Virus record (IMG/VR): IMGVR_UViG_3300009285_016375
Location: 1-64,000 of that record
DNA: 64,000 nucleotides
Source of the DNA: a virus
Direction: 5' to 3' (one strand)
The position numbers and the translations under genes are program-made. Every line of letters starts with the position of its first letter. The first letter of the stretch is position 1. This document shows, in pieces, positions 1-63,994 of this stretch. The notes below the pieces were generated by a model. It saw nothing but the letters and a program-made list of their open reading frames with translations. It was not told the DNA's origin and made no database searches.

Positions 1-4
1 TCAT

Positions 5-25
5 CGCTGAGCTTGGTCGTTAGCC
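5..25 (+). repeat. attC right arm (R' core GTTAGCC), cut by the window edge
   Basis: CGCTGAGCTTGGTC-GTTAGCC resembles the right arms of the other sites. GTTAGCC is complementary to GGCTAAC at 359-365. Confidence 0.75.
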
Positions 26-34
26 TGGTCCAGT

Positions 35-286
35 ATGTTCGCGTCACTCAAAGAATGGTGGAAGAAGTGGTTCTGCATCCCGCCGAGGAATGACGAAATC
101 ACCACGATTCCAGGTCTGGGCGTTTTCCTGCCATACAACCCGCAGGAATCGCTGTTCACGCGCGAGTTCATTTGGCCGGTGAAAATCTTCGGGCGCGAGC
201 ACTGGAAGTGGATCATCGGGACTTTAGTGGCCATCATCGTCCCGCTTTCTGGAGCGCTTATTGTCGCGTTCCTCCGACGCCATTGA
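35..286 (+). CDS. small membrane protein, sense-orientation cassette gene
   Basis: The ORF starts 10 nt after an R' core, ends before the next attC, and has a C-terminal hydrophobic helix (WIIGTLVAIIVPLSGALIVAFL). Confidence 0.6.
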   Translation: MFASLKEWWKKWFCIPPRNDEITTIPGLGVFLPYNPQESLFTREFIWPVKIFGREHWKWIIGTLVAIIVPLSGALIVAFLRRH

Positions 287-358
287 CAGTAGGAGCATGA
301 TTCCAGGCAATGAAATCATCATGGTTATTACATACAGTTCGAGAAAATCGTCCATGAT

Positions 359-451
359 GGCTAACAAGGTCACTGGAGCGGACGGCTGGGGGCCGCTCCA
401 GTTTCAGGTTGATTGTCTGCGGCCAGCCGCCGCTCAGTTCTCACGTTCGGC
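359..451 (+). repeat. attC site
   Basis: GGCTAAC...GTTCGGC ends; imperfect inverted repeat CTGGAGCGGACGGCTGG / CCAGCCGCCGCTCAG with extrahelical bases. Confidence 0.85.
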
Positions 452-705
452 TTCTGTGGGCACGCGGCCTCGAATCCGAAAAATGAATGTTCCGTCATGT
501 CCCACCGGCACGCATTTCCGCAGATGATACACTCCTTCATCTCGTCGTTGATACAGCCACGCATCCGGCTGATTGTCGGCCCACCGATTGCCGCACAGTC
601 AGGATGTCGCTGGCCAGAAGCCGAACAAGACGCTGGAGCACAACGGCCCTTGTCCTCTCCGGTTATGGTGTCGCAGGTTGTCGGGAGTTTTGTTTCTTCG
701 TTCAT
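370..705 (-). CDS. hypothetical phage protein (CxxC) with attC-encoded N- and C-termini
   Basis: The ATG lies in the loop of attC 620-750 and overlaps the upstream TGA. The C-terminus is read through attC 359-451. Confidence 0.6.
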   Translation of the reverse strand: MNEETKLPTTCDTITGEDKGRCAPASCSASGQRHPDCAAIGGPTISRMRGCINDEMKECIICGNACRWDMTEHSFFGFEAACPQKPNVRTERRLAADNQPETGAAPSRPLQ

Positions 706-750
706 ACTTTTGGGTTGTTGGCCGGGCCGTGGCTCAGCTTGTCGTTAGGC
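620..750 (+). repeat. attC site
   Basis: GCCGAAC...GTTAGGC; CTGGAGCACAACGGCC / GGCCGTGGCTCAG; closely similar to 2249-2379. Confidence 0.85.
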
Positions 751-944
751 GCACTCGTCTCTTGTGATTCCAGCGCCATCAGCATTTCAGCCGTATGACA
801 CTCGCTCTCGTAGTGCGATCCTGGCATACAGCACTTGCCGGGGAAGCAGCAGCCTTCCGGGCCGAGCGGCGATTCGTCGTCTTGGCAGCGTTCTTCGGGT
901 TCGTCCACGCCGTCGTCCATTTCGATTCCATTTATGATTATCAT
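702..944 (-). CDS. hypothetical Cys-rich phage protein
   Basis: The ORF ends inside an attC loop with an ATGA overlap to the next gene. Confidence 0.55.
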   Translation of the reverse strand: MIIINGIEMDDGVDEPEERCQDDESPLGPEGCCFPGKCCMPGSHYESECHTAEMLMALESQETSAPNDKLSHGPANNPKV

Positions 945-968
945 AGCGTTCTTTGAGTTTGACCGTGC

Positions 969-1060
969 GCCTAACCATGCGCTGCAGCGAACCCGGCCAT
1001 CGCATCACTGTTGCAATCGTGGCGTCTCGTGGGCCGGGTCGCTGATCCGGGTCGTTATGC
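969..1060 (+). repeat. attC site
   Basis: GCCTAAC...GTTATGC; GCTGCAGCGAACCCGGCC / GGCCGGGTCGCTGATC; canonical attC form. Confidence 0.9.
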
Positions 1061-1341
1061 CAAAATACGTTGCAATCTTCTGTGGAGTAGATGACCTGCC
1101 ATCCGAAAAGCTGCCAGGATTGGATGCCTTCGCGCGCTCCAACTGCCGTAGCGCCAGACAACTGTCGCGTGAGGCGATGGCGTTTGACTATAAAGGCTCC
1201 GAAGATGAGTTCTTTCAGCAGGTCCATACCAAACTTGGCCGAACCATCCCCGTGATTGTTCTGACCGTTGAGTCGGCTCGTTGGGCGATGCCAAGTCAGA
1301 GCATTGATGACGCCTTAAAGCGATTCTTTGATGAAGCATAA
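1057..1341 (+). CDS. hypothetical protein, classical sense-orientation integron cassette gene (94 aa)
   Basis: The ATG is inside the R' core (GTT-ATG-C) and the TAA stop is inside the R'' core (GCA-TAA-C), which is textbook cassette geometry. Confidence 0.7.
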   Translation: MPKYVAIFCGVDDLPSEKLPGLDAFARSNCRSARQLSREAMAFDYKGSEDEFFQQVHTKLGRTIPVIVLTVESARWAMPSQSIDDALKRFFDEA

Positions 1342-1427
1342 CAAGTCACTCCAGCGGACGGCGGGGGGCCGCTTCAGGTTGATGGGGTTGCTCAGTGGCC
1401 CGCCGCCGCTGAGTTCTATCGTTCGGC
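1336..1427 (+). repeat. attC site
   Basis: GCATAAC...GTTCGGC; CTCCAGCGGACGGCGGG / CCCGCCGCCGCTGAG. Confidence 0.88.
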
Positions 1428-2050
1428 ATTTCTACGTCGTTGGCGATTTCGTTGCCCCAGACGTGCCAGCCGGGCCGTTTGCGGCGAGCAAAGAGTTCGA
1501 GCCGTGGCCCATCGTCTGTCTGCTCAATGAGCCATTGCCACTCGACAGGTTTCTTGGAGTGCTTCTTTGTCATCGGCAGTTTTATGACCGCTGATGGCAG
1601 ACGTTTCTTGCACGGTGGATTTCCGCGCACCGCGACCAGAAGAAACTCCGCTCCGTTTGAAGTGACCGAGCCGGTGAGCGGAGCAGGGTCGGCCTTGTGC
1701 CAGACCAGAGTTTGCCGGTATCGGAATCCCCAGGCTTCAATCACGCGAAAGGCGTCAGGCAGATATTTATTGGTCGTCCAGAGCCAGAGCCGACAGTCCT
1801 TGTCCGCAAGTTCACTGACTTTAAGCGCGCAGATTTCTTTGACCGTCATTGACGGATACGGAAGCGGCTTGGACGTGATTTCCCCGTGCCAGTTTCCAGA
1901 GTGCGACGAGCCTCGGAATCCATCGTCATATTCCCAAGGCGGGTCTGCGACAATGACCCGAAATGCCGAACAAGGCGCTGGACACGAATGAGAGGGAGCG
2001 CGTTGAGGCTCTGTCTCAAAGTCGAACATCATTGGCGCGCTCCCTCTCAT
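1346..2050 (-). CDS. MT-A70 family adenine methyltransferase
   Basis: VIVADPPW catalytic motif, YPSM, LWLWTTN, HSKKP, RLELFARR..GWHVWGNE. Confidence 0.9.
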   Translation of the reverse strand: MRGSAPMMFDFETEPQRAPSHSCPAPCSAFRVIVADPPWEYDDGFRGSSHSGNWHGEITSKPLPYPSMTVKEICALKVSELADKDCRLWLWTTNKYLPDAFRVIEAWGFRYRQTLVWHKADPAPLTGSVTSNGAEFLLVAVRGNPPCKKRLPSAVIKLPMTKKHSKKPVEWQWLIEQTDDGPRLELFARRKRPGWHVWGNEIANDVEMPNDRTQRRRATEQPHQPEAAPRRPLE

Positions 2051-2071
2051 CGGTCAGCTTTTTCGTTCGGC
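1965..2071 (+). repeat. attC site
   Basis: GCCGAAC...GTTCGGC; ATGAGAGGGAGCGCG / CGCGCTCCCTCTCAT perfect stem. Confidence 0.85.
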
Positions 2072-2322
2072 GAGCGCGCATCCAGCCACTTCTGAGATCG
2101 CGTGCCGATTCCGTCAGGGATGCCGCACTTCTTTGTCTCGGCGATGAAGACATCTGTCGCAAAGCACGAGACGATCACTCGGCTGGCGGCGGCGAGCGCG
2201 TTCCGCAAGTCACGGATCAGTAACCATGTTTCTTCGTCACAGGGGATCGCCGAACAAGACGCCGGAGCACAACGGCCCTTGTCCTCTGCTGTTAGTCTGC
2301 CTTGGATTGTCGAGAGTTTCAT
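2047..2322 (-). CDS. hypothetical phage protein with attC-encoded termini
   Basis: Shares the N-terminal EDKGRCAPASCSA with gene 370-705; ATGA overlap with the methylase. Confidence 0.55.
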   Translation of the reverse strand: MKLSTIQGRLTAEDKGRCAPASCSAIPCDEETWLLIRDLRNALAAASRVIVSCFATDVFIAETKKCGIPDGIGTRSQKWLDARSPNEKADR

Positions 2323-2379
2323 TTCTTCGTTCAGAGTCTTGGTTGTTCGCCGGGCCGTGGCTCAGCTTGGTCGTTAGAC
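2249..2379 (+). repeat. attC site
   Basis: GCCGAAC...GTTAGAC; paralog of 620-750. Confidence 0.85.
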
Positions 2380-2630
2380 GACTTGTTCATCTCGCGTCCA
2401 ACGGGGAATATCGGGCCTTGCCATTGCGCTTTCTCGAACTGCTCGACGTTGAGTCGCACGCCGCCGCTATTCTCCCATGAGTGACCATTCCAGAACGCCG
2501 GGAAGATTGGGGTCCACATGCCGTAGTCCATCCAATACCAGCCTGTTTGTTCGGGCGGGTCGTCTAACCAGGCGCTGGAGCACCACTGCCGCCCCGCGTC
2601 TCCGATTTGTTGCGTTGTTGGTTCACTCAT
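2331..2630 (-). CDS. hypothetical Trp-rich phage protein
   Basis: PPEQTGWYW...WQGPI pattern is common in small phage early proteins; the start lies in an attC loop. Confidence 0.6.
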   Translation of the reverse strand: MSEPTTQQIGDAGRQWCSSAWLDDPPEQTGWYWMDYGMWTPIFPAFWNGHSWENSGGVRLNVEQFEKAQWQGPIFPVGREMNKSSNDQAEPRPGEQPRL

Positions 2631-2689
2631 ATTCTCAGTGCCGGCCACCGTCGCTGCCGGGCGGCAGTGGCTCAGCTTTTTCGTTAGGC
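2562..2689 (+). repeat. attC site
   Basis: GTCTAAC...GTTAGGC; CTGGAGCACCACTGCCGCCC / GGGCGGCAGTGGCTCAG. Confidence 0.85.
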
Positions 2690-2946
2690 GGCACAGGCAC
2701 GATTCGGACTTCGACCTGCATCGCGTCGGGAGTTTCTCCGGTGTAGGTGCACCGGTTTAGTGCCTCGTCTTTCGTCGCGCAGAACGGGCTTGTCATCTCT
2801 CCGTTTGAATAAAGGTTCACCCAATAGGTGCGCTGAAATCCGGGATGGCATAGGTTGCAGGCGATTTCAGGTTCTAACGCCGAACCAGGTCGCTGCACCG
2901 AATCCGCGCCCCGCTTCTCACGCTCAATCGTTGTTGGTTCATTCAT
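2635..2946 (-). CDS. hypothetical phage protein
   Basis: Starts MNEPTT after the DnaB stop; the C-terminus PNEKAEPLPP is attC-derived. Confidence 0.55.
   Translation of the reverse strand: MNEPTTIEREKRGADSVQRPGSALEPEIACNLCHPGFQRTYWVNLYSNGEMTSPFCATKDEALNRCTYTGETPDAMQVEVRIVPVPPNEKAEPLPPGSDGGRH
2879..2915 (+). repeat. attC left half-site (no right arm found)
   Basis: GCCGAAC-CAGGTCGCTGCACCGAA resembles the left arms of the complete sites. Confidence 0.5.
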
Positions 2947-2959
2947 GCGTTTCTTTCGT

Positions 2960-5476
2960 TCATGGATCCTTGTATCTGGGGTCGGGTGCGCAGGCGGGCT
3001 GGCTTCTGGCGACGCTCTCGAAGCGGGTGTAGCTGCGCAGGAAGGTGAGGGCGACGTCGCCGGTGGGGCCATTGCGTTGCTTGGCGAGGGCGAGCTGGAC
3101 GGGGGCGGCCTCCCGCTCGGGCACGCCGGCCTGGACTTCCTCGGTGTCGTCGGCCTTGGGCCTATAGAGCAGGCCCACCACGTCGCTGTCCTGTTCGAGT
3201 GCGCCGGACTCGCGCAGATCGGAGAGGCGCGGTGGGCGGCCTTCCCGTTCCAGGTCGCGATTGAGTTGACTGAGCACCAAGACTGGCGTGTTCAACTCTT
3301 TGGCCAGCGACTTGAGCCCGCGGGAAATCTCGGCCACTTCCTGCTGGCGGTTTTCGGTCTTGGGCGAGCTGCCGCGCAGCAGTTGCAGGTAATCCACAAT
3401 GAGGAGCTTGAGGCCGTGCTGCTGCCAGAGGCGGCGGGCCTTGGCCCGCAGTTGCATGATGGTCAAGTCCGAGGAGTCATCGATGAACAGGGGCGAGACG
3501 GCCAACTGGCCCGCCGCGCCGGTCAGCTTCGGAAAATCGCGCTCCGTAAGGAACCCCTGCCGGAGGTTGCGCAGGTTGACCCGCGCCCGCGAAGCCATCA
3601 TGCGCAAGACCAGCGACTCGGCGGTCATTTCCAGGCTGAACACGCCCACGGGCAGCTTGAGGTCCAGGGCCACGTGCTCGGCAATGTTCATGGCGAGCGC
3701 AGTGTTGTGCGTCACAATGAAATCATCCGTCACGTAAAGGTGGTCGGCGGAATCCAGCAGGAGGCACTGACACTCATCGTTTCCGTCGGGATGAATTTCC
3801 ACGATGCTCTTGTGCACATGGCGCGCATCAAGTCTCAGCTTGGAAAGATGTTTTGCTGAGGTGACTGGCACCACGGACGGGTCCTCAAACCATATTTGGC
3901 ACCGATAATTCACCAGCCCGATCTTTCGTGCTCCGCGGTGGGTGTAGGTCGGAATTCGGCTCGGCCCCTCCACGCAAATGCCCCCGAGCGAACGCACCAG
4001 GTATTTCACGTCCGCCATGAGTCGTTCGCTCGAAGTGCTGAACTCGATGGATGTCCCACCAACACATCCGTCCGTGTCCAAAAGGCCGCGCAGCAGTTCC
4101 AGCCGGTTGGGGATGGACGCATGTAAATACGACCCCGGAATGAATTTGCGTTCCGAGCGCACGTTCAACCCCAGACGCTCGATGGCCGTCATGGTTTCCG
4201 ATCGGTCGTTGTCCCGCTGCCGTCGTTTGATGCGGAGGCTCATTTCGTCAGCCACTACGGCGGTGTCATCGGGTGGAAGCAAGCCCATCAATTTCCGGTG
4301 CAAGTCGGCCTCGGGTTTGGAAAATACAACGCATCCATTAGCCAACGATCCGTCGCCGAGCAACGCCCCGCACAACCACGGGTGCAAGGGCAGGCCATCT
4401 CCCTGCGCAAACTCCACCGGGCGCACGGCCGGAACGACGTGATTTCGGTAGGCGCCGTCCGGACGCCGAATGGTGCGGTGAATTTCCGCGGTGGTTTTCA
4501 CGGAACCTAAAACACCGCGCCGCCGCTCATTTCTGGTTTGCGTGAACCAGAGGTGTTCGTCACAGCAGCGCGTGAATGTTCCGTCGGAGAAAATGACCTT
4601 GCTCACCTTTTTCTGCCCTTGAGGGAACACGCCCACCACTGGGTGCGGCCTGCCATCTGCGCCAATCACCATGGACCCAACAGCGATCTGGGACATGGCT
4701 ACATAGCCTTCCGGCGTGAGCACGCTCACATTCAGAGGTTGCGCCTTGCCCAGGCTCGGGCGGGCCGCGATGACGATCATTTCCCCGGCGTGCAGCCCGC
4801 TGGTGAGCTGGTCGAAATCGGGAAAGCCGGTGGCCAGGCCGGTCAGTGCGCCGCCGCGCGCGTGGGCTTGCTCGATGCTGTCCAGGGCCACGTTGACCAG
4901 GGTGCGAATGGGTCGGGCTGCGCTGGTGCCCCGCTGTTCGCCTACCTGGAGGATTTCGCTTTCGGCGCCGTCCAGGAGTTCCTCGGCGTGGCCGGCGTGT
5001 TCGTAGATGCGGCCCGTGATGCTGGTGCAGGCCCGCAGCAGGCGCCGGAGCAGGTATTTGTCCCAGACGATGTCGATGTAATAGCCGGCGTGGGCGGAGG
5101 AGGGGGCCACGTCCGGCAAAGGGGCCAGGAAAGCCATCCCGCCGACGGCTTCCCACTGCTGCTGGTCCTTCAGGCGCTGGGCCAGGGTGATGAGGTCGAT
5201 TGGGTGGCGCTGGTCGTAGAGGGTTTCCAGGGCAGCGTAGATGGCGCGATGGCGGAGGTCGTAGAAGGCCTCACGGCCCGCGAAGCGCTCGAGGCACAGC
5301 GGCAACACGTCTTGGGGGGCGAGCAGGATGCAGCTCAGCACGGCCTGTTCGGCTTCGAGGCTGTGCGGGGGCAGCCGATCCCTGAGCACACGGGCCCCAT
5401 CGGCTACCAGTTCAGCTAACAAGCTCACCGGAGCGGACCCGGCCCTTGCGTCTTCGTTGCAGTCGTTAGTCTTCAT
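2960..5476 (-). CDS. dnaB: replicative DNA helicase DnaB, intein-containing
   Basis: PPHSLEAEQAVL N-terminus, AARPSLGK/T Walker A split by an intein, FSLEM, IVDYLQL, LSQLNR, DLRESGALEQDSD, KQRNGPTG. Confidence 0.97.
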   Translation of the reverse strand: MKTNDCNEDARAGSAPVSLLAELVADGARVLRDRLPPHSLEAEQAVLSCILLAPQDVLPLCLERFAGREAFYDLRHRAIYAALETLYDQRHPIDLITLAQRLKDQQQWEAVGGMAFLAPLPDVAPSSAHAGYYIDIVWDKYLLRRLLRACTSITGRIYEHAGHAEELLDGAESEILQVGEQRGTSAARPIRTLVNVALDSIEQAHARGGALTGLATGFPDFDQLTSGLHAGEMIVIAARPSLGKAQPLNVSVLTPEGYVAMSQIAVGSMVIGADGRPHPVVGVFPQGQKKVSKVIFSDGTFTRCCDEHLWFTQTRNERRRGVLGSVKTTAEIHRTIRRPDGAYRNHVVPAVRPVEFAQGDGLPLHPWLCGALLGDGSLANGCVVFSKPEADLHRKLMGLLPPDDTAVVADEMSLRIKRRQRDNDRSETMTAIERLGLNVRSERKFIPGSYLHASIPNRLELLRGLLDTDGCVGGTSIEFSTSSERLMADVKYLVRSLGGICVEGPSRIPTYTHRGARKIGLVNYRCQIWFEDPSVVPVTSAKHLSKLRLDARHVHKSIVEIHPDGNDECQCLLLDSADHLYVTDDFIVTHNTALAMNIAEHVALDLKLPVGVFSLEMTAESLVLRMMASRARVNLRNLRQGFLTERDFPKLTGAAGQLAVSPLFIDDSSDLTIMQLRAKARRLWQQHGLKLLIVDYLQLLRGSSPKTENRQQEVAEISRGLKSLAKELNTPVLVLSQLNRDLEREGRPPRLSDLRESGALEQDSDVVGLLYRPKADDTEEVQAGVPEREAAPVQLALAKQRNGPTGDVALTFLRSYTRFESVARSQPACAPDPRYKDP
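3704..4744 (-). mobile_element. intein (347 aa, Ala1, class 3-type WCT signature) with LAGLIDADG homing endonuclease
   Basis: Starts AQPL after GK and ends IVTHN/T. Block B is EHLW and block F is ECQCLLL. LAGLIDADG motifs are GALLGDG and GLLDTDG. Confidence 0.92.
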
Positions 5477-5506
5477 GGGCCGGGTTGCTCAGTTCAGTCG
5501 TTAGAC
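5414..5506 (+). repeat. attC site containing the dnaB start codon
   Basis: AGCTAAC...GTTAGAC; GAGCGGACCCGGCCC / GGGCCGGGTTGCTC. Confidence 0.8.
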
Positions 5507-5835
5507 GACTTCGGATCGTAGCACTCGCACCCGCCTGAGTGCTGCGGCCAGTTGTCGAAAATTCTTCCGTCCATTTCCGGGTTGTGACACGCCCAGCCTT
5601 TTTGCACGCCACAGACGCAGCGGCCTTTGATGCCTGCCGCTTTCTTTTGCTCATCCGTCGGCTGTGGCTCTGTGCCGCAGTGATAGTGGACTGGATGCAG
5701 ATGCTTGCAGTTGCAGCAGCATTGCACGAAGGTCGGGTCGTCTTTCAGTCCGCACCACGTCGCCGACCCGGCGGTTGGAGCTAACGGCCGCCCCGCTTCT
5801 GGCTTCGGTTGAGTCTCGGTTAATTCGGTCGTCAT
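5494..5835 (-). CDS. hypothetical Cys-rich phage protein
   Basis: CCCNCKH...CVC...CECY; ends in an attC right arm; its N-terminus is a degenerate attC left arm near 5762-5795. Confidence 0.6.
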   Translation of the reverse strand: MTTELTETQPKPEAGRPLAPTAGSATWCGLKDDPTFVQCCCNCKHLHPVHYHCGTEPQPTDEQKKAAGIKGRCVCGVQKGWACHNPEMDGRIFDNWPQHSGGCECYDPKSSND

Positions 5836-5861
5836 GTGTCCTTTCTGGCGTCACTGCTACA

Positions 5862-6212
5862 TCAGTTACCCATGACTTGCTTGAGCGCCCAGTATTCAGG
5901 GTTCACGAATCCGGCCACGATGTTGCTGACAGAGCAGCACAGTGCGATGAGCAGACAGAGCGTTCCGACGCCCCAGATTAGCCACGGCAGCGCGATGCTT
6001 CCACAGTTGTCGTTCCAGTCGCCGTCATCCTTGGTTTTATCACGCACGAGCCGGTAGCCCAAGACCATCACGGCAGCGTAGATGCAGAGCGCGATTGCTT
6101 CGGTCGTGCTGGTTATCGGCGCTTGTCGCACCAGCACCGCCCACAGGTGTTCGGCAGTCGTGCCGAGTTTCTCTGCGAGCTTTTCGATGAGTTGCTGTGT
6201 TTGTTCGTTCAT
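5862..6212 (-). CDS. hypothetical two-TM membrane protein
   Basis: LIEKLAEKLGTTAEHLW...two hydrophobic helices...NPEYWAL. Confidence 0.7.
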   Translation of the reverse strand: MNEQTQQLIEKLAEKLGTTAEHLWAVLVRQAPITSTTEAIALCIYAAVMVLGYRLVRDKTKDDGDWNDNCGSIALPWLIWGVGTLCLLIALCCSVSNIVAGFVNPEYWALKQVMGN

Positions 6213-6238
6213 ACATTTATTTCGAGTTCGACCGTGAT

Positions 6239-6331
6239 GCCCAACCATGCGCTGGAGGCAAAGCGGCGGGCGCATCTGGGTTGGCAATCGGACGCCCGCG
6301 TGCGCCGCTTGCCTCAGCTTGGTCGTTCGGC
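6239..6331 (+). repeat. attC site
   Basis: GCCCAAC...GTTCGGC; GCTGGAGGCAAAGCGGCG / CGCCGCTTGCCTCAGC. Confidence 0.88.
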
Positions 6332-6516
6332 GAAAGAGCGCGCCCGCATGTCCTATAGTGCCACGGGTCGGTTTTTATCCGCATCGGACATCTGCCACTT
6401 TTCAGCGCAGCCTTGTAACGATAGTCAGTCGGGACCAGAGTATGTCCTCTGGTGCAGCGCAGACCACAAGTCGCCGAACAATTCGGCGACACCACGTTCA
6501 GTAGTTGCGAGTTGAT

Positions 6517-7320
6517 ATGACCGACATCCCTACGGAACTGAAGGCAATGACCGCAAACATCGGGAAGTGCATCCTGATTTGTCAGGGGATTGAGGTCATG
6601 CTCGCGACGATGATTCTCATAGAGCGCAAGCAACCAAAGAGCGCGGTCGATGAGTTCATCCGCGAGTTTGCGCGTCTCAGGCTTCAGATACTCGGTGCCC
6701 TCAAAAAAGAGCTTCTCAAACTGAAGGTTACGTATGCTGAGTTTGACCATCTCGATGATGTCATTGAGCGAAGAAACTGGCTTGTTCATATGATGAGGTT
6801 GGATTGCGTGGAGAGGCTCGCGAGGCTCACTACAAGCTCCGTCAGGAGATTTTTGACGGAGATGATCGAGAATCCAAAGCCCTTCTCGATACCGTGCGAG
6901 CAACGATTCAGAGTGTTGATAGCTAGTTTTCATACGCCGAACAAGGGCGAACAGCCGCCCGCCTTTCCGTTTCGTGAGGTTTGGATTTTTCATAGGTCTT
7001 TCGTGTCGGCGACAGTCGTGGTCGGCGGCTGTCGCTCAGTTCGGTCGTTAGACCACAGCGACCGCCCACTTCGCATGAGCTTTTCGAGACGCTTGAATGT
7101 TGGACTGCCAGACCTGATAATGACGTGCATGAGGCCAGCGGATGTTTTCACCGCTGCTGTGCCGTATCCGATGATGTCAGCATCCGCAATGGTGTGGTCT
7201 AACAAGGGCGCTGCACCTACCCGCCGCCCCGCTTTCCGTTTCGAGTTTGATTTCATTTCGATTGTCCTTTCTGCGCACCACCGTCGCCGTCGGGCGGCAG
7301 TGGCTCAGCTTTTTCGTTAG
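6517..7320 (+). CDS. putative HEPN-like cassette gene or fragment; the 3' part is probably read-through
   Basis: Helical ORF with ERRNWLVH (RxxxxH) and lower GC. It starts just after a collapsed attC. An antisense ORF (6217-6993) is also open. Confidence 0.4.
   Translation: MTDIPTELKAMTANIGKCILICQGIEVMLATMILIERKQPKSAVDEFIREFARLRLQILGALKKELLKLKVTYAEFDHLDDVIERRNWLVHMMRLDCVERLARLTTSSVRRFLTEMIENPKPFSIPCEQRFRVLIASFHTPNKGEQPPAFPFREVWIFHRSFVSATVVVGGCRSVRSLDHSDRPLRMSFSRRLNVGLPDLIMTCMRPADVFTAAVPYPMMSASAMVWSNKGAAPTRRPAFRFEFDFISIVLSAHHRRRRAAVAQLFR
6936..7053 (+). repeat. attC site
   Basis: GCCGAAC...GTTAGAC; GCGAACAGCCGCC / GGCGGCTGTCGC. Confidence 0.8.
6990..7256 (-). CDS. hypothetical phage protein with attC-encoded termini
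   Basis: ATGA overlaps at both ends, each inside an attC loop. Confidence 0.55.
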   Translation of the reverse strand: MKSNSKRKAGRRVGAAPLLDHTIADADIIGYGTAAVKTSAGLMHVIIRSGSPTFKRLEKLMRSGRSLWSNDRTERQPPTTTVADTKDL

Positions 7321-7322
7321 GA
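7197..7322 (+). repeat. attC site
   Basis: GTCTAAC...GTTAGGA; the right arm is nearly identical to that of 2562-2689. Confidence 0.8.
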
Positions 7323-7564
7323 GACTCCATGCGTTCACGGGTTCTCATTTCCACGGACTTGCGAGTTGCGAACATGGCGAGGCTGTTCATCCGCTCGACA
7401 GCATATTTAGCGGCGGCGGTGGTGTGCGTGGTTGGCGATGCTTCCTCGGCTTGTACCGCACCTTGCTCGAAAAGGTCGGCGGCGTCATCCCAGTCTTTTG
7501 CGGTGAGCCGTCTCCTCACCAGGCGCTGGACACAACCGCCGTTGGCGCGTTCTGTGTTGCTCAT
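7253..7564 (-). CDS. hypothetical phage protein
   Basis: The N-terminus GGCVQRLVRR comes from a degenerate attC left arm at 7513-7545; the C-terminus is PNEKAEPLPP. Confidence 0.55.
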   Translation of the reverse strand: MSNTERANGGCVQRLVRRRLTAKDWDDAADLFEQGAVQAEEASPTTHTTAAAKYAVERMNSLAMFATRKSVEMRTRERMESPNEKAEPLPPDGDGGAQKGQSK

Positions 7565-7829
7565 ACCGCCGCCCCACTCCATCGTGCGACGGATTGCCTG
7601 GGGCCTTGTCCAGGGCTGCCACCGCGCCGGGGCGCCCCACCGGTCTCGCCGCCAATGGCCCGCCATCGCGCGGAAATGGCCCGCCACGGCGTCGCAACGC
7701 CGAGGTGGTTGCTTCCTACCTGCCCGCCCCCTACGATGCGTCCTGGTGGCGCCCAGAGGCCAAGGAATCTCTTTCTACCCAACCTCGGCGCTCTGGTCTC
7801 GGCGCTCTGGTTGTCATAAGTGGTTGGTT

Positions 7830-8513
7830 TCAAGCCGGGCATGGGTTTTGGGGTTGGGCGATCTGGGCCAGCAACTCCCGGCGCTGGCGGCGCCAGGCCA
7901 GGATTTGGTCGCGGTTCTTCTCCGGCAGCTCGCGGGCCTGGGCGTGTTCATGCGGCTGGAGCAGCTTTTCCAAGGCGTCCAGGCGTTGGCGGAGCGCCCA
8001 GAGCCGGGCGGTGGCCGATTCCCTTTCCCCCCCTGGACCCCCCTTATTCTTTTTCTTATTATTTTCCTCTTCCTTTTCCTTTTCCTCTTCCTGTACCCTA
8101 TTGCATAGGGTATTTGAGGGATGGGTATTAAGAGAGGTAGTAAATACCCTATTAAATAGGGTATGGGGTAGGCTAGCGGCGAGGAGGATGCGCACCTCGG
8201 GTTGGGCGGCCAGCAAGCGTAAGATCGGCTTATGGGCGGGACAGGTCTCCGACAGTTGGCCGTATTGAAATTCAATGAAGCCAATGAGCCACCATTTGCC
8301 GTCGGCGAGCCTCTGGACGCGCCCTTGGAAATGGGCCAGGTCTTGGGCGCTGACGGGCCCGCCGATCTGGAAGCTAGCCAACTCGAAATCCGGTTCCCAA
8401 ACGCCGATGGCGTTGCACTTGGCGCAGAGGTAGGCCCAGAAACATTTGAGCCGGCAATCCAGTTTGCGGTGCCATTCTTTGTCCCATTGTTCAGTGGCGG
8501 TGAAGCGCTTCAT
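7830..8513 (-). CDS. putative phage replication initiator
   Basis: KRFTATEQW..EWHRKL...FWAYL...CNAIGVWE N-terminal domain, an EKEKEEE linker, internal palindromic repeats, and a position upstream of dnaB. Confidence 0.7.
   Translation of the reverse strand: MKRFTATEQWDKEWHRKLDCRLKCFWAYLCAKCNAIGVWEPDFELASFQIGGPVSAQDLAHFQGRVQRLADGKWWLIGFIEFQYGQLSETCPAHKPILRLLAAQPEVRILLAASLPHTLFNRVFTTSLNTHPSNTLCNRVQEEEKEKEEENNKKKNKGGPGGERESATARLWALRQRLDALEKLLQPHEHAQARELPEKNRDQILAWRRQRRELLAQIAQPQNPCPA
8040..8170. other. putative replication origin inside the initiator gene
   Basis: Two copies of the palindrome TACCCTAT-N3-ATAGGGTA (8094-8112, 8145-8163) lie next to an AT-rich polypyrimidine tract. Confidence 0.55.
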
Positions 8514-22648: not shown

Positions 22649-23503
22649 CTAGTTGTAGAGGTGCACCAGAAGGCCGTCGGCGTTGTTGCCGGTTTCGAGA
22701 TACCAGTTGGCCAGGTTGTCGCGGCGGGCTTCCGAGATGCCCACGGTATAAGGGCCGGCGCCGGCCAGCACTTTGATGGGCTGCGCGTTCGAGCCCGCCG
22801 TTGGCCCGACGTAGGCATCGGCGACGTTGTCCGTTTGGGCGGCTTTCAGGCCGTAGAAAGCGGCTTCGCGGAACTGGAGATGGGCGGTGACGGTGGCGTT
22901 GCGGGTGTAGTTTTCCAGGGTAACAATGGTGTCGCCAACCCCGGCGGTGATGAGATCAATGGCGGTGCCCGCAATGGCATTGGCGAAACTGGAGGCCAAT
23001 TTGAGTTCGGTAGTGGACTCGATGATGAGGTAGTAGGTGGTGTCTTCGGCCAGGCCGGTGGGCAGGCTGCCCCCATCTGCGGCCACCGTGCAGGCTTGGC
23101 CTGTGACCCAGTTGGATGGAATGGTGCCATCCGTAATGGTGAGAATTTCGCTGGTCTCGTCGGCCGAAAAGTTGTCAGACGCCGCGAGCAGGGCAATGGT
23201 GCCTTTCGGGGCAATCGTCAAATAATCGCTTTCCACGGCCAGGATGACGGCTTCAAAATCTGCCACCGGGGCCAGGCCGTCGGTGATAGAGATGGTGAGG
23301 CGATCTCCGGCTACCAAGTCCGGGACGCTGCCGGAGTAATCGGCAAAGTTCAGCAGGGTGGCGTAGTCGTTGTTGTAAACCCAGTTGAGCAGGCAGGCAT
23401 AGGCCGTCAGGCCGGTGGTGCCGGCGCTGGCCAGCACGCGGGTAAACTGGCGGGGATGGTTCAGGCCGGAGAGGTCCGGGAAACTGGGGTCGCTAGGATT
23501 CAT
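22649..23503 (-). CDS. putative virion structural protein
   Basis: LPTGLAEDTTYY...TELKLASS..NAIAGTAIDL beta module, as seen in phage structural proteins. Confidence 0.6.
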   Translation of the reverse strand: MNPSDPSFPDLSGLNHPRQFTRVLASAGTTGLTAYACLLNWVYNNDYATLLNFADYSGSVPDLVAGDRLTISITDGLAPVADFEAVILAVESDYLTIAPKGTIALLAASDNFSADETSEILTITDGTIPSNWVTGQACTVAADGGSLPTGLAEDTTYYLIIESTTELKLASSFANAIAGTAIDLITAGVGDTIVTLENYTRNATVTAHLQFREAAFYGLKAAQTDNVADAYVGPTAGSNAQPIKVLAGAGPYTVGISEARRDNLANWYLETGNNADGLLVHLYN

Positions 23504-24011
23504 GGTTCAAAGTGTTTGCCTCTTTAAGGGTATTCTCAGAGGCCAGCGGGGCGGGTGGGAGGGGGTGAATGTTCTGTTGGACGTAGGCGACGTCCGCATG
23601 AATATCTGGGAGATTGGAGCGCGGGGTGCCTTTGGGGTTTTTGGAGTGGCCTTGAATCTCGGCCAGCTTAAGTTCCAGCTCGGCTAAAGCGACGTGGGAG
23701 CGGATGGCTTCGTTGAGGGCTGCGGCCCAAGCCAGGTAGTCAGCGGGCTGTTCTCCCGCTCTGGCCAGACGCTGGGAAAGATCGCGCAGCAGCCAGGCGA
23801 TGCGATCATGGGCGTCCAGGGTTTCGGTGGCGATAAAGCCGCGGAAGTTACGGGTGACAAAGGAGCCGAGCAGGCTTTTGCCCTTGAACTTTTCCAGGTC
23901 CAGGGTCACGCCGGCGGCCTTGGCCGCTTTGAGGACTTCTGCATCATCCCAGGTGACCAGCTCGGCCTTGGCGGCGTGGGCGGCGTCGATATGGGTGAAA
24001 TGGTTAGACAT
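23493..24011 (-). CDS. hypothetical helical protein (possible small terminase)
   Basis: Coupled ORF in the TerL-strand block; the function is a positional guess. Confidence 0.5.
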   Translation of the reverse strand: MSNHFTHIDAAHAAKAELVTWDDAEVLKAAKAAGVTLDLEKFKGKSLLGSFVTRNFRGFIATETLDAHDRIAWLLRDLSQRLARAGEQPADYLAWAAALNEAIRSHVALAELELKLAEIQGHSKNPKGTPRSNLPDIHADVAYVQQNIHPLPPAPLASENTLKEANTLNHES

Positions 24012-61300: not shown

Positions 61301-61419
61301 GCGGTGCCTGGGCAGGCTGTATCCTCGCGCTTGCAAACCGCGTTCCGCGAGTGCCTGGGCCGGCAAGCGTGCCCAACCAGACTCGCGCTGCGCTTTGTGG
61401 TAGCGCAAAGAATTGATTA
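61301..61419 (-). ncRNA. putative structured leader / tracrRNA-like scaffold
   Basis: Hairpins CGCGAGT...ACTCGCG (with inner TGGGC/GCCCA) and TGCGCT/AGCGCA, plus a short anti-repeat-like segment ATCCTCGCGC. Confidence 0.4.
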
Positions 61420-62661
61420 TCACGGCTCGCGAGCGGTGTCAAGGCTTTCCACCGCACCGGCGCACTCGCAAGCCATCCCAAACTCACGCAGCTTGTTGGC
61501 CAGCATGACCTGCAACTCGTGCCAGGGAAACTCAGGCAGATAACCGCCTTGAGTTTCATCATAGACAACCGTGTTGACGCCTTGGCGCTGAGCGAACTTG
61601 GCCAAGGCTGAGCAGGATTGCTGCATGAAAGATCGGACCCGACGATGATGCTTGGCCACTTGCGCCTGGCGGTATTCTCCCAACCGCGGCGGTTCGCCCA
61701 AGCGGACCTCGTATTTTGAGTCGTCGGAAAGCCGGTCCAACTGCCGGCGATGAGCAGCGATCCAGCGGCGGACGTGATCAGCGTGCAAGCGCCACGGTTC
61801 CCGCCCTTCCACCTCGGCGATCCAGAAAGCATCCGGCGCCCTGCTGAGCACCAGCCGGCGCTGAACCGGGGCCGGGCGCTGCGGTTTGGGCAGCCACGCC
61901 ACCAGCTTGACCATCACGTCGTAGCACTGGCGGGCGCCGCCACCGGCTGCCCGGTCTGGCAAGCCAGGCCGATGGGTGTTGCCAGAGACCCTTTTGCGGT
62001 AGAGGGCCAATTCGCCAGGCACGGCTTGGCCACTGACAATCTGCTCGAAGGCACCCAGTTGGCGGCGGAAGCCTGCCCCACCCCGCAACCGCAAACTGAT
62101 GCGCTCGCCGCCCAAACGCACTGAGACCACGGGCACGCGTTCGGTGTCCGAGAGCCAGCGCGCTTGCCAGGAGGCGTTGTGGGCGGGGTAGGGAACCGGG
62201 TAACGGAACCAGGGCAGGGTGGCGCTGCCCGACCAGATGGTGGCCCAGCGGGCGGAGTTGTATTTCTGTTGGGCCATTCGGGAAACGGCCGCCGCGGCTT
62301 GGCTTTCCATGTCCGGCCGCCGCTCACGAGCGATCTGATAGACGTTCAGCTTGGGGGCGGGCGGGAGCTTGGTCAGGCTGGGTGAGCGCACCACGTCGGC
62401 CTTGGCCAAGGCGGTCAGCACGGTGTTGGCCACTTCGGTGGCTTGAGCCCAGGCCGCGCCCAAGCGGGCGCGGAAGGCCGGCCAGTCCAGGCCGATGGGT
62501 GAAGCCACCGGGAAGGTGACGGCCCGCAGAATGTAGGCATGGCGCCAACAGGTCTGGCACCAAGGCTGGTCCTGATGGCGTTTCCAGCCGGCGGGCACGC
62601 GCTGGCGCCCGGCTTTGGTGGGTTTGGCGGCGGCTTCCCGGCCGCACAGGTGGCATTTCAT
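61420..62661 (-). CDS. nuclease-dead Cas12f/TnpB-family RNA-guided effector with N-terminal CxxC..CxxC
   Basis: Colinear similarity to AsCas12f1 as recalled (SPIGLDWPAF vs KPLDLDWKEF; IWSGSATLPWFR vs ILRGDMSIPSYK; QIVSG vs RILSG; GVNTVVYDE vs GCGTIQMED; WHELQVMLANK..EFGM vs YYDLQQKIIYK..EAGI). The RuvC-I GIDLG motif is absent and the TNB zinc finger and RuvC-III are missing. Confidence 0.8.
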   Translation of the reverse strand: MKCHLCGREAAAKPTKAGRQRVPAGWKRHQDQPWCQTCWRHAYILRAVTFPVASPIGLDWPAFRARLGAAWAQATEVANTVLTALAKADVVRSPSLTKLPPAPKLNVYQIARERRPDMESQAAAAVSRMAQQKYNSARWATIWSGSATLPWFRYPVPYPAHNASWQARWLSDTERVPVVSVRLGGERISLRLRGGAGFRRQLGAFEQIVSGQAVPGELALYRKRVSGNTHRPGLPDRAAGGGARQCYDVMVKLVAWLPKPQRPAPVQRRLVLSRAPDAFWIAEVEGREPWRLHADHVRRWIAAHRRQLDRLSDDSKYEVRLGEPPRLGEYRQAQVAKHHRRVRSFMQQSCSALAKFAQRQGVNTVVYDETQGGYLPEFPWHELQVMLANKLREFGMACECAGAVESLDTAREP

Positions 62662-63602
62662 AGCAGATGTCCGGTGAGTTTCTGCCGGCCTTCTTGGGCC
62701 AGGGGGGCGCGCACGTAATCCAGGCTCTGCCGCGGGCTGGCATGGCCCACTAAAGCAGCAATCTGTTCCGGGCTCAAGCCCGCCGCGCGGCAGTGCTCAA
62801 TAAAGGTGGCCCGCAGATCGTGAATGTTCAGATGCAACAGGCCCAGTTCGGCGCGCAGTGCCCGGAATTGCAGGCGCAAGGCTTTGGCCGGCACGCGCCG
62901 CACCCGTTCCGGGAAGACGAAACGCTCGCCGTTGGCCCCGTTGGCCCGCGGGATGGCTTGCAGGATAACCGCCAGAGGCGGGGCCAATGGAATGACCACG
63001 CGCTGGTGCTGCCGTTTCTTGGTCCAGACCGTGATCGTCCCAGCCTCCAGATCCAGGCTGTCCCATTCCAGGCATTGGACGTCCGAGGGGAAGCGCAAGC
63101 CCGCGTGGACGCAGAGGGCCAAGGCCGCCTGCCAAAATTCCCAGCGTTCCAGCCGCTGCCCGGCTTGGGCGCACTGGCCGGCGGCTTGCTGGGCGCGAGC
63201 GCGATCTATCCGGGCCTGGATGGCGGTGAAGAGGGCCTGCACCTGGGCCCGGCTGTAGGTGCCACGGGGGCGACTTTCGCGCAGGGCATGGGGCAGGGCC
63301 TCCAGGCGCAACTTGCGGAAGCGGGCGGGGTTGCCGTGCAGGAGGCCGGCGTCGCCGAGAAAATCGCACCAGTGTTGCAAGGCGGCCTTGCAGATCTGGC
63401 GGGTGGCCGCTTTCCAGGGCAGGGCGGGGTCCTCCAGGAAAGCGCGCACGCTGGGTTTTGTGATGTCCGAGAGCCGGGACGGCTGGGTGCGAGCCAGATA
63501 CCAGCCGACGTAGTTGGTGTAGATTTGGGCGGTGGAGGCGCGCACGTCGCCTTCCTGTTGCAGGTGGTCGGTCCAGCGTGCTAGGGCGTTCAGGGGTTTC
63601 AT
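62658..63602 (-). CDS. tyrosine recombinase/integrase
   Basis: N-terminal SAM-like domain (STAQIY); catalytic AGLR, K, HDLRATF, LVGH, DY. The start was chosen at MKPLNAL. Confidence 0.92.
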   Translation of the reverse strand: MKPLNALARWTDHLQQEGDVRASTAQIYTNYVGWYLARTQPSRLSDITKPSVRAFLEDPALPWKAATRQICKAALQHWCDFLGDAGLLHGNPARFRKLRLEALPHALRESRPRGTYSRAQVQALFTAIQARIDRARAQQAAGQCAQAGQRLERWEFWQAALALCVHAGLRFPSDVQCLEWDSLDLEAGTITVWTKKRQHQRVVIPLAPPLAVILQAIPRANGANGERFVFPERVRRVPAKALRLQFRALRAELGLLHLNIHDLRATFIEHCRAAGLSPEQIAALVGHASPRQSLDYVRAPLAQEGRQKLTGHLL

Positions 63603-63603
63603 C

Positions 63604-63629
63604 GCGGGTGCTGAGCTGGGTCGTTCGGC
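63604..63629 (+). repeat. attC right half-site or attI-like first core site, abutting the recombinase start
   Basis: GTGCTGAGCTGGGTC-GTTCGGC, with no left arm visible. Confidence 0.6.
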
Positions 63630-63906: not shown

Positions 63907-63994
63907 GCCAAACAAGACACTGGAGCGGACGGCGGGGGGCCGCTTCAGCGAGCGGGGCGTTACGGGCGCCGCCGCTCAGTTCGGGTCGTTCGGC
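63907..63994 (+). repeat. attC site
   Basis: GCCAAAC...GTTCGGC; CTGGAGCGGACGGCG / CGCCGCCGCTCAG; the left arm is nearly identical to that of 1336-1427. Confidence 0.85.

Follow-up and report, generated by a model that had tools for sequence, protein, structure and literature searches.

A phage array of integron-type gene cassettes with most genes antisense to their attC sites

We analyzed a 64,000-nucleotide stretch of phage DNA (the window; positions 1 to 64,000 of IMG/VR virus record IMGVR_UViG_3300009285_016375). The complete record is 74.5 kb long, is estimated by CheckV to be 98% complete, and carries a Holliday-junction resolvase, an exonuclease, an Erf-like annealing protein, a large terminase and a tail spike. 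The first ~7.6 kb contain small early genes interspersed with attC sites of the type found in integrons, and a second part of the array begins at the right end of the window. In total, about 25 small early genes are organized in this manner. The array has a lower GC content (0.56-0.62) than the rest of the genome (0.62-0.68). The features are listed in Table 1.

Table 1. Coordinates and supporting evidence for features of the array and the neighbouring recombinase. Bits and E values refer to a covariance model built from bacterial attC sites only; D4, D12 and D14 are repeat families identified in the sequence; G003 and G004 are two other viral records with mirrored arrays.
Position	Strand	Feature	Evidence
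1..25	+	3' fragment (L'-R') of an attC site cut by the start of the record	Model positions 73-97, E 0.15, truncated at the 5' end; motif GCTGAGCTTGGTCGTTAG
35..286	+	Top-strand (canonical orientation) cassette gene, 83 aa with a C-terminal hydrophobic helix	Codon model favours the + strand by a small margin
359..451	+	attC site	44.1 bits, E 3.5e-9; fold
370..705	-	111-aa Cys-rich ORF, starts in the loop of site 620-750 and stops in site 359-451	Codon model calls the minus strand
620..750	+	attC site; loop holds the ATGA stop/start overlap at 702-705	43.6 bits, E 4.9e-9
702..944	-	80-aa ORF; tail PNDKLSHGPANNPKV encoded by the R'-L' arm of site 620-750	Codon model calls the minus strand by 0.36, the largest margin
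969..1060	+	attC site, about 87% identical by eye to an attC of a Verrucomicrobiales genome (L095:5576-5668)	54.9 bits, E 5.3e-12
1057..1341	+	Top-strand canonical cassette gene, 94 aa; ATG in the R' of the previous site, TAA in R''	
1336..1427	+	attC site	51.4 bits, E 4.2e-11
1346..2050	-	MT-A70 DNA methyltransferase; first 29 aa encoded by attC 1965-2071, last ~27 aa by attC 1336-1427	Pfam PF05063 at 1.1e-27 over residues 30-201; phrog_359 at 6e-52; in-frame starts only at codons 1, 7 and 8, all in the loop
1965..2071	+	attC site with the ATGA overlap at 2047-2050; 90% identical to the attC nearest intI in G004	52.4 bits
2047..2322	-	91-aa ORF starting in the loop of site 2249-2379	
2249..2379	+	attC site, paralogue of site 620-750	38.4 bits, E 1.1e-7; repeat family D4
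2331..2630	-	99-aa ORF; ATG in the loop of site 2562-2689, 4 nt after the upstream stop	
2562..2689	+	attC site	51.3 bits, E 4.5e-11
2635..2946	-	103-aa ORF starting in the half site at 2879; leader MNEPT..EKRG recurs in G004	
2879..2950	+	5' half attC (R''-L''-loop with a start codon), no L'-R'	Repeat family D12; not reported by the model
2960..5476	-	DnaB replicative helicase with a LAGLIDADG intein; ATG in the loop of attC 5414-5506; a core phage gene, not a proper cassette	Pfam DnaB_C 3e-88, DnaB 5e-24, LAGLIDADG_3 4e-7; homologues lie outside the arrays in G003 and G004
5414..5506	+	attC site	38.0 bits, E 1.4e-7
5494..5835	-	113-aa Cys-rich protein; core conserved in 13 database proteins, leader and tail vary	63-94% identity
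5762..5835	+	Degenerate 5' half attC that supplies the start of the 113-aa gene	Repeat family D12; not reported by the model
5862..6212	-	116-aa membrane protein (moron / host-takeover category)	phrog_1486 at 2.2e-12
6239..6331	+	attC site, the best match to the bacterial model	60.6 bits, E 1.7e-13
6470..6490	+	Collapsed site: R'' abuts an R'-like box (GTCGCCGAAC AA TTCGGCGAC); an R''/R' palindrome with the middle missing	
6517..6925	+	Probable top-strand gene; reading frame unclear after about 6790	Codon model ties between strands
6936..7053	+	attC site with the ATGA overlap at 6990-6993	24.2 bits, E 6e-4 (reported as 6936-7045)
6990..7256	-	88-aa ORF, from loop to loop	
7197..7322	+	attC site with the ATGA overlap at 7253-7256	30.3 bits, E 1.5e-5
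7253..7564	-	First gene of the leftward run; ATG in the half site at 7510	
7510..7564	+	5' half attC (R'' TCCTCAC, one base off the complement of the previous R'); last site of the array	Repeat family D14; not reported by the model
62658..63602	-	Tyrosine recombinase in the position and orientation that intI would have; not an IntI	PF00589 at 4e-14; TIGR02249 14 bits against a cut-off of 265; lacks both IntI-specific segments
63611..63629	+	Lone L'-R' right arm close to the recombinase start codon, identical to the right arm of the site at 66,000-66,086 of the record	
63907..63994	+	First complete attC of the second part of the array, which runs on to about 71.2 kb of the record, beyond the window	55.8 bits, E 3.1e-12

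A sequence-only reading of this DNA had proposed 11 complete attC-like sites in one orientation plus half or collapsed sites, each R'' being complementary to the R' of the previous site, with most genes on the opposite strand and four ATGA overlaps within the attC variable regions. These observations were confirmed. To determine whether the sites are genuine attC sites, we built a covariance model from 35 bacterial attC sites only. The model detected all 11 complete sites on the + strand (60.6 to 24.2 bits, E 1.7e-13 to 6e-4), as well as the truncated site at the start of the record. Ten further sites were found between 63.9 and 71.0 kb of the record, also on the + strand, one of them inside the window. 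No match was obtained on the minus strand, and nothing else convincing was found in the 64 kb. The half sites at 2879, 5762 and 7510 were recognized by eye and in the repeat families. The bottom strand of the complete sites folds as a 7-bp R box, an unpaired 6/5-nt spacer, an L stem with two bulged bases on one arm, and a variable loop. Arms pair with their own partner at -20.5 kcal/mol, compared to -13.0 kcal/mol for mismatched partners, and 7 of 7 predicted pairs have compensatory changes in the phage sites.

We next analyzed the relationship between consecutive sites. The complementarity of R'' to the previous R' was exact in the examples given by the sequence-only reading. Over 50 consecutive pairs in five phage records, 74% matched perfectly at variable core positions 4-7, compared to 27% for a site's own R' and 15% for other pairs. 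The match extends 6 nt beyond the core, and 0 of 20,000 random pairings reached the observed value. This is the footprint of integron recombination at G|TT. Note that the rule is strand-symmetric, and the polarity of the sites therefore rests on the bulges and on the covariance model.

The coding strand was assigned with a codon model that has 95-97% strand accuracy on known genes. The model called 21 of 26 cassette bodies minus, although the margins for bodies of 150-280 nt are small and most cassette proteins are orphans. MT-A70, DnaB and the phrog_1486 protein lie on the minus strand. Not every gene is antisense, however: two cassettes (35-286 and 1057-1341) carry top-strand genes, and the region 6332-6935 is ambiguous. 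With the same method, bacterial arrays with this attC type came out as 33 top to 6 bottom. In contrast, the phage records came out, bottom to top, as 15:1 for this phage, and 13:0 (G003), 7:0 (G004), 4:0 (G002) and 8:8 (G001) for four other viral records, or 47 of 56 on the bottom strand overall.

Several genes start and stop inside attC loops, and attC arms would therefore be translated. This is most evident for the MT-A70 methylase, which has no in-frame start between R'' and its DPPW motif. The four ATGA stop/start overlaps are real, and 12 of 12 R' boxes in the window are crossed in one reading frame, although this could partly reflect common descent of the sites. Stop/start coupling inside the loop occurred at 28 of 65 phage sites, compared to 8 of 79 bacterial sites and 6 of 65 sites when the top strand was read as a mirror control. 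Nevertheless, only 6 of 20 junctions are tightly coupled, and DnaB is flanked by half sites.

The same 3' arm motif occurs in at least 120 bacterial contigs, many of them from Planctomycetota or Verrucomicrobiota. All 5 bacterial genomes tested have IntI hits, 3 of them above the cut-off. In contrast, no integron integrase was found in the phage record. Among the four other viral records carrying the mirrored arrays, G003 and G004 are complete genomes with terminal repeats, G002 has an IntI (306.7 bits), and G004 has an IntI-like gene (230.9 bits) in canonical geometry relative to attC; the genes of G002 and G004 lie beside the array. The MT-A70 cassette 1424-2072 matches G001 23331-23970 from attC boundary to attC boundary. 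Only one cassette is shared with another array, at 71% nucleotide identity, and no close relative of this phage was found. The methylase and the 113-aa Cys-rich protein occur in other phages as ordinary genes without the attC-coded leader and tail. Homologues carry different leaders and tails; those of the 113-aa protein carry at least three different attC-type leaders, which crossover at R' alone would not produce.

Taken together, these results are best explained by a genuine integron-type cassette array of the kind called a CALIN, a cluster of attC sites with no integron integrase nearby, located in the early / replication-recombination region of an uncultured, probably temperate phage whose host is likely a member of Planctomycetota or Verrucomicrobiota (probability roughly 0.75). 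In this view, the sites are homologues of the attC sites of the chromosomal integrons of these bacteria, and the cassettes were assembled by IntI-type recombination at G|TT. Unlike in bacterial cassettes, nearly all genes lie on the attC bottom strand, co-directional with the long leftward gene run of the phage. The loop of each attC carries the stop of the upstream gene and the start of the next, such that the L''-R'' arm would be translated as an N-terminal leader and the R'-L' arm of the neighbour as a C-terminal tail. Every R' in the window is crossed in the frame that reads AAC as a codon, and a cassette placed next to any other would thus still end in frame, near the next start. The analysis establishes the identity and polarity of the sites, the recombination footprint, the coding strand and the anatomy of the junctions. 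That recombination still occurs, which in this genome would require a host or co-infecting IntI, that the arms are translated in vivo, and that the locked frame is selected for are inferences from sequence. The absence of IntI from a record estimated as 98% complete means that cassette movement here may be only historical, and the five half or collapsed sites in the window look like decay. The sequence-only reading had further inferred that the phage reformatted its own early genes as shuffleable cassettes that stay translationally coupled in any order. Its interpretation is thus supported in part: the array, the footprint and the antisense genes hold, whereas the reformatting has only indirect support, from the single frame at R' and from the homologues lacking attC-coded ends, and is weakened by the missing IntI, the half or collapsed sites, the few tightly coupled junctions, the position of DnaB, and the two or three canonical top-strand cassettes.

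Clusters of attC sites in phage genomes, some with integron integrases, have been described, including DNA methyltransferase cassettes, and IntI1 recombined phage attC bottom strands in 5 of 6 cases (Qi, Rajabal, Ghaly, Tetu and Gillings 2023, Front Microbiol, PMC9892861). The CALINs in that study have a minimum of two sites, and those highlighted are described as having the layout typical of bacterial arrays; the text does not mention antisense genes or translated attC. In the present phage there are about 25 sites, nearly all genes lie on the bottom strand, starts and stops sit in the loops, and one frame is used at R'. We found no description of this mirrored layout with attC arms inside the genes. 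Bacterial chromosomal integron arrays and CALINs (Cury et al. 2016, PMC4889954), specifically those of Planctomycetota and Verrucomicrobiota, share the attC sequence family and fold, one polarity per array and the R''/previous-R' footprint, but have most genes on the top strand. In 'inverted integrase' integrons such as that of Treponema denticola (reported by Coleman 2004 and Boucher 2007), the integrase gene and the cassette genes also point the same way. There, however, the intI gene is reportedly flipped relative to attI and attC, whereas in G004 and G002 intI keeps its canonical relation to attC polarity and it is the ORFs that are flipped. Promoter-early stem-loops (PeSLs) of T4-type phages (Arbiol et al. 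2010) are repeated stem-loops reported to flank small early genes and thought to allow modular shuffling of a hypervariable early region. PeSLs are reportedly promoter-plus-hairpin units exchanged by homologous recombination, whereas the sites analyzed here are attC homologues with R boxes, bulges and a G|TT footprint.

Alternative explanations were considered. The array could be a fossil, assembled by an integrase in an ancestor (relatives still encode IntI) but no longer mobile, with the attC sites surviving because their loops now act as translational-coupling junctions, or as mRNA hairpins, for the early operon. Consistent with this possibility are the absence of IntI, the half and collapsed sites and the starts and stops in the loops, and no sigma-70-like promoters or terminators were found on the minus strand inside the array. 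However, the complete sites keep the R boxes, spacer and bulges that matter for recombination and not for coupling, and the R''/previous-R' complementarity is still perfect up to 12 nt, suggesting that little decay has happened since the last events. Moreover, the likely hosts carry IntI. We consider this reading unlikely, though it is the strongest of the alternatives.

Somewhat more doubtful is that the conserved attC arms serve as portable short homologies, with genes exchanged between phages by the phage's own Erf/exonuclease system and not by an integrase. The phage encodes an Erf-like annealing protein and a RecE-like exonuclease, and in homologues of the 113-aa protein similarity breaks at both R'' and R', with different attC-type leaders attached to the same core. 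However, homologous exchange between conserved arms explains neither why cassette-specific bases beyond the 7-bp core are complementary between a given R'' and the previous R', nor the conserved bulges and spacer.

It is also improbable that the neighbouring non-IntI tyrosine recombinase is the cassette recombinase, which would make it a second enzyme lineage working on folded attC sites. The gene lies in intI geometry, pointing away from the array with its ATG close to the lone L'-R' arm, which has a GTTCGGC core, and its catalytic residues appear intact by inspection. However, in addition to its failure to match IntI (Table 1), it is an orphan among 5.8 billion proteins, so the association does not recur, and relatives use true IntI. 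It may simply be the lysogeny integrase, or part of the adjacent TnpB-like / repeat module.

Finally, that the array is host chromosomal integron DNA left on the ends of a badly trimmed prophage record is very unlikely: although IMG/VR classes the record as a provirus, and although the arrays lie at both of its ends and the attC type is that of bacterial integrons, both array parts contain phage-type genes (DnaB, MT-A70, phrog_1486, phrog_1314 and the phrog_1297 ATPase) and run co-directionally into the phage recombination genes, the same arrays lie inside two complete terminal-repeat genomes, and gene orientation is the opposite of that in bacterial arrays.

The window is the first 64 kb of a 74,507-bp IMG/VR virus record (G000), which IMG/VR classes as a provirus and CheckV estimates to be 98% complete. 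The record is a real phage. It encodes a Holliday-junction resolvase, an exonuclease and an Erf-like annealing protein on the minus strand, and in addition a large terminase, a tail-spike-like 1505-aa protein and a virion protein. The region carrying the sites continues this leftward gene run and contains a DnaB helicase, an MT-A70 DNA methylase and a phrog_1486 membrane protein, all on the minus strand. The DnaB helicase is interrupted by an intein with a LAGLIDADG homing-endonuclease domain, and the homologue in the related viral record G003 aligns in two blocks that skip it. The GC content of the region (0.56-0.62) is lower than that of the rest of the genome (0.62-0.68). Pfam and PHROGs searches gave nothing for most of the small cassette proteins.

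Features discussed in the text, with their coordinates
Location	Coordinates	Strand	Feature
Window	1-25		Truncated attC site at the start of the record
Window	35-286	+	Ordinary top-strand cassette gene
Window	359-451	+	attC site
Window	969-1060	+	attC site resembling an attC of a Verrucomicrobiales genome
Window	1057-1341	+	Ordinary top-strand cassette gene
Window	1336-1427	+	attC site
Window	1424-2072		MT-A70 cassette
Window	2879		5' half site
Window	2960-5476	-	DnaB helicase with intein
Window	5494-5835	-	Gene for the 113-aa protein
Window	5762		5' half site
Window	6332-6935		Stretch with ambiguous coding strand
Window	6470-6490		R''/R' palindrome without a middle
Window	7510		5' half site
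Window	8094-8163		Two adjacent palindromes
Window	8.5-13.6 kb	-	Holliday-junction resolvase, exonuclease and Erf-like annealing protein
Window	51126-60497	+	Single 3123-aa ORF
Window	60976-63602		Recombinase, 413-aa ORF and direct repeats
Window	63907-63994	+	attC site of the second part of the array
Record	63.9-71.0 kb	+	Second part of the array, ten model hits
Record	64,219		attC site
Record	65,679-65,771 (L001:5679-5771)		attC site of chimeric appearance
Record	73,860-74,507 (L001:13860-14507)		AT-rich end of the record
G001 (viral record)	23331-23970		Match to the MT-A70 cassette
G003 (complete viral genome)	L020:11518-16868		Bottom-strand ORFs of the array
G004 (complete viral genome)	L022:10023-10534		Promoter and two small genes between the first attC and the IntI-like gene
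G005 (viral contig)	L011:8596-11887		Seven GC-rich attC sites

All 11 sites that the sequence-only reading had called complete are present where it had placed them; its observation thus held. The terminal 7-bp boxes R'' (RYYYAAC) and R' (GTTRRRY) are found in inverted orientation at every one of the 11 sites, as GCCTAAC, GTCTAAC, GCATAAC or GCCGAAC with GTTAGGC, GTTAGAC, GTTATGC or GTTCGGC. The pair GCCGAAC/GTTCGGC departs from the consensus at position 4, as it does in the bacterial sites. The bottom (minus) strand folds as a 7-bp R box, an unpaired spacer of 6 and 5 nt, an L stem with two bulged bases on its 3' arm, and a variable loop, with site lengths of 92-131 nt. The first bulged base is C in most sites and G in a few, and the bacterial sites of this type read the same way by eye. 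Arms pair with their own partner at -20.5 kcal/mol on average, compared to -13.0 kcal/mol for arms of other sites, and RNAalifold found compensatory changes in 7 of 7 predicted pairs.

As an independent test, we collected attC sites from bacterial contigs only and aligned 35 of them. In this alignment 94% of cells are paired and 14 pairs covary, and no shuffle reached the observed values. A covariance model built from the alignment found all 11 sites on the + strand, at 60.6 to 24.2 bits (E 1.7e-13 to 6e-4), as well as the truncated site at the start of the record. It found nothing on the minus strand and, apart from one site at the right end of the window (see below), nothing else convincing in 64 kb. 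Failure of the sites in attC models, which had been named beforehand as grounds for rejecting the reading, was therefore not observed with this model. A first, energy-based scan for sites was strand-blind and noisy and was superseded by the covariance model. Rfam contained no matching family, either at gathering or at E-value thresholds. The attC at 969-1060 is about 87% identical by eye to an attC of a Verrucomicrobiales genome. The 5' half sites were seen by eye and among the repeat families of the window.

In integrons, it is established that insertion of circular cassettes at G|TT leaves a footprint in which each R'' is complementary to the R' at the start of the same cassette, which is the R' of the preceding site. 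The complementary pairs listed in the sequence-only reading are exact. Six of 22 consecutive pairs in this record match perfectly over 10 nt or more, compared to 5 of 558 other pairs. Over 50 consecutive pairs in five phage records, R''(i) matches R'(i-1) perfectly at variable core positions 4-7 in 74% of cases, as against 27% for a site's own R' and 15% for unrelated pairs. The match continues into six cassette-specific bases beyond the core (3.24 of 6 against about 1.7), and none of 20,000 random pairings reached the observed sums. Note that this rule is strand-symmetric and does not fix polarity, which rests on the bulges and on the covariance model.

The array is larger than the region first described. 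The same sites, all on the + strand, recur in the last part of the record with ten model hits, one of them inside the window. The record starts in the middle of an attC and ends in AT-rich DNA unlike the rest of the genome, with an AP2/HNH-like reading frame. The ends do not join. The record is therefore cut or permuted, and the two parts probably form one array of about 18 kb. The attC at 65,679-65,771 looks chimeric: its 5' half matches sites 359-451 and 64,219, whereas its 3' half is near-identical to site 1336-1427, which creates a G-G mismatch in the L stem.

At the head of the array, a lone L'-R' arm with a GTTCGGC core lies close to the start codon of a 314-aa tyrosine recombinase at 62658-63602 that points away from the array. 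This is the geometry of intI. However, the enzyme is not an IntI. It matches PF00589 at 4e-14 but scores only 14 bits on TIGR02249 against a cut-off of 265, and it lacks both IntI-specific segments in an alignment with true IntIs. It has no relatives among 5.8 billion proteins. No TIGR02249 match was found in the record. With at least two closely spaced attC sites of one polarity and no IntI nearby, the element is therefore classed as a CALIN and not as a complete integron. Directly downstream of the recombinase, overlapping its stop, lies a 413-aa ORF with N-terminal CxxC pairs and no Pfam hit, followed by about five direct repeats of a ~38-nt unit (GCCCACAGCATTCGCCAAGTTGTTTGGTTGCTGCGAGG).

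To determine where this type of site comes from, we searched for its 3' arm motif. The motif occurs in at least 120 bacterial contigs, many of them from Planctomycetota (Gemmataceae, Fimbriiglobus, Isosphaeraceae, Pirellulaceae) or Verrucomicrobiota. All five genomes tested have integron-integrase hits, three of them above the curated cut-off. Thus, the likely hosts carry both the enzyme and the same kind of site. The same motif led to further IMG/VR records, and the covariance model found one-strand arrays in each of four: G001 (17 sites), G003 (14 sites), G004 (8 sites) and G002 (6 sites), of which G003 and G004 are complete genomes with terminal repeats. G002 encodes a bona fide IntI (306.7 bits) and G004 an IntI-like protein (230.9 bits over the full model length), both in canonical geometry relative to attC polarity. 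In G004, a near-consensus sigma-70 promoter (TTGACA, 17 nt, TACAAT) and two small genes co-directional with intI lie between the first attC and the IntI-like gene. These phages share only distant DnaB similarity with the phage analyzed here. Another viral contig, G005 (31% GC, CheckV 9% complete), has seven GC-rich attC sites with AT-rich cassettes whose ORFs look top-strand, i.e. canonical; it may be host DNA or a different kind of phage array. Searches for close relatives of the phage gave nothing, whether with the recombinase protein, an exact 24-mer of one attC type or the large terminase in IMG/VR, and blastn of positions 1-7800 against GenBank phages returned only short DnaB-motif hits.

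We next analyzed the coding strand of the cassettes. Longest-ORF and GC3-GC1 comparisons could not tell the strand of short cassettes, because both strands are open. We therefore used a codon-usage model trained on 26 long genes of this phage, which called the strand of 150-270-nt fragments of known genes correctly 95-97% of the time. This model called 21 of 26 cassette bodies minus. With sites oriented by the covariance model, the bottom-to-top counts were 15:1 for G000, 13:0 for G003, 7:0 for G004, 4:0 for G002 and 8:8 for G001. In contrast, the same method on bacterial arrays of the same attC type gave 33 top to 6 bottom, the expected canonical result, which serves as the positive control. 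The family matches of MT-A70, DnaB and phrog_1486 likewise lie on the minus strand, and the 113-aa minus-strand protein has 13 homologues at 63-94% identity. A canonical cassette carries a promoterless ORF on the attC top strand that ends before or in R''; in the window only the genes at 35-286 and 1057-1341 fit this description.

The four ATGA stop/start overlaps described in the sequence-only reading are real, and other junctions have the next start 4-8 nt after the stop. All 12 R' boxes in the window are crossed by the open minus-strand frame that reads AAC as a codon, giving tails such as PNDKLSHGPANNPKV and SNDQAEPRPGEQPRL. In the second part of the array, however, the frames differ, and many genes are self-contained, with the stop directly beside R'. 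In G003, which has no tyrosine recombinase, 6 of 14 bottom-strand ORFs end exactly at the TAA inside R' (xCTAAC), mirroring the canonical habit of stopping in R''. MT-A70 has in-frame start codons only at codons 1, 7 and 8, all in the attC loop, and none between R'' (codons 27-29) and the catalytic DPPW motif (codons 36-39). The same holds for its homologues in G001 and in the sequence L006. A functional methylase must therefore be translated through L'' and R''. Across five phage records, 28 of 65 sites have an incoming ORF of at least 50 codons that stops in the loop beside a start leading to at least 50 further codons, and 24 of these are ATGA or GTGA overlaps. The corresponding figures are 8 of 79 for bacterial sites and 6 of 65 when the top strand is read as a mirror control.

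The cassettes show signs of modularity. The MT-A70 cassette matches its counterpart in G001 (71% nucleotide, 65% amino-acid identity) from attC boundary to attC boundary, with unrelated neighbours. A metagenome scan with MT-A70 returned mostly ordinary, non-cassette methylase genes, which served only as the plain-gene comparison; most of these homologues start a few residues before DPPW and lack the leader and tail. Homologues of the 113-aa protein share a core that begins right after the R''-coded 'GSA' and ends at the R'-coded 'PN', but carry different leaders and tails. In seven other viral contigs this gene is a plain gene with no attC nearby, whereas an eighth contig has eight attC sites, all on the strand opposite the match.

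Most likely, the array was built by IntI-type recombination at G|TT from a pool of cassettes whose genes lie on the bottom strand. The nature and polarity of the sites, the footprint, the coding strand and the anatomy of the junctions are shown by the analysis, whereas recombination of the folded bottom strand by an integrase, transcription and translation are inferred from sequence alone. The cassettes are probably read as part of the long leftward gene run. No sigma-70-like promoter or terminator was found on that strand inside the array, although the hosts' promoters may not fit the consensus. In this view, each cassette would carry on the bottom strand first the tail and stop for its upstream neighbour, then its own start, leader and body up to AA|C, and with one frame at the crossover any neighbour would complete any gene. 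The proposal of the sequence-only reading, that the phage has reformatted its own early genes as shuffleable cassettes that stay translationally coupled in any order, is supported only indirectly.

In this genome the enzyme would have to come from the host or from a co-infecting phage; alternatively, the array is now frozen. The different leaders on one conserved core suggest that homologous exchange across the conserved arms also contributes, perhaps through the Erf/exonuclease pair of the phage. Chance or REP-like repeats were rejected in view of the covariance-model matches, and host DNA flanking the prophage in view of the phage-type genes in both parts of the array and the same arrays in two complete phage genomes.

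Integrons and CALINs in phages, methylase cassettes within them, and recombination of phage attC sites by IntI1 have been published (Qi et al. 2023, PMC9892861). That paper does not mention antisense genes or translated attC, and a further search of an incomplete literature collection found no description of such a mirrored layout. What differs here is the orientation of the genes and the inclusion of the recombination site in the coding sequence. A more far-reaching hypothesis, which we regard as tentative and somewhat less likely than not, is that phages of Planctomycetota, Verrucomicrobiota and probably other phyla keep their own mirror-image cassette pool. The attC site would then be a dual-purpose element, both an IntI recombination site and, on the bottom strand, a translation junction supplying the neighbour's tail and stop plus the gene's own start and leader. 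The reading frame would be locked at the AA|C crossover, such that any cassette order yields complete, coupled ORFs, and the mirrored orientation would also keep the phage and host cassette pools from being expressed in each other's arrays.

Integrons are the textbook system for capturing and reshuffling genes in bacteria, and how cassettes arise and whether viruses use the system for themselves are open questions. Here a phage, together with at least four other viral records, two of them complete genomes, carries large arrays whose genes are mostly written backwards relative to bacterial arrays of the same attC type. If confirmed, a DNA recombination site would also act as a protein-coding linker with a fixed reading frame. 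This would explain how hypervariable early regions of phages, with their methylases and host-takeover genes, can be reshuffled without breaking operon expression. It would also reveal a phage-specific cassette pool that standard integron surveys, which assume top-strand ORFs, would mis-annotate, and it would make cassette origin testable, because the same gene families occur both as plain phage genes and as cassettes.

Outside the array, a single 3123-aa ORF lies on the + strand at 51126-60497. Just beyond the end of the array are two adjacent 19-22-nt palindromes (TACCCTATTGCATAGGGTA and TACCCTATTAAATAGGGTA), which are operator-like.
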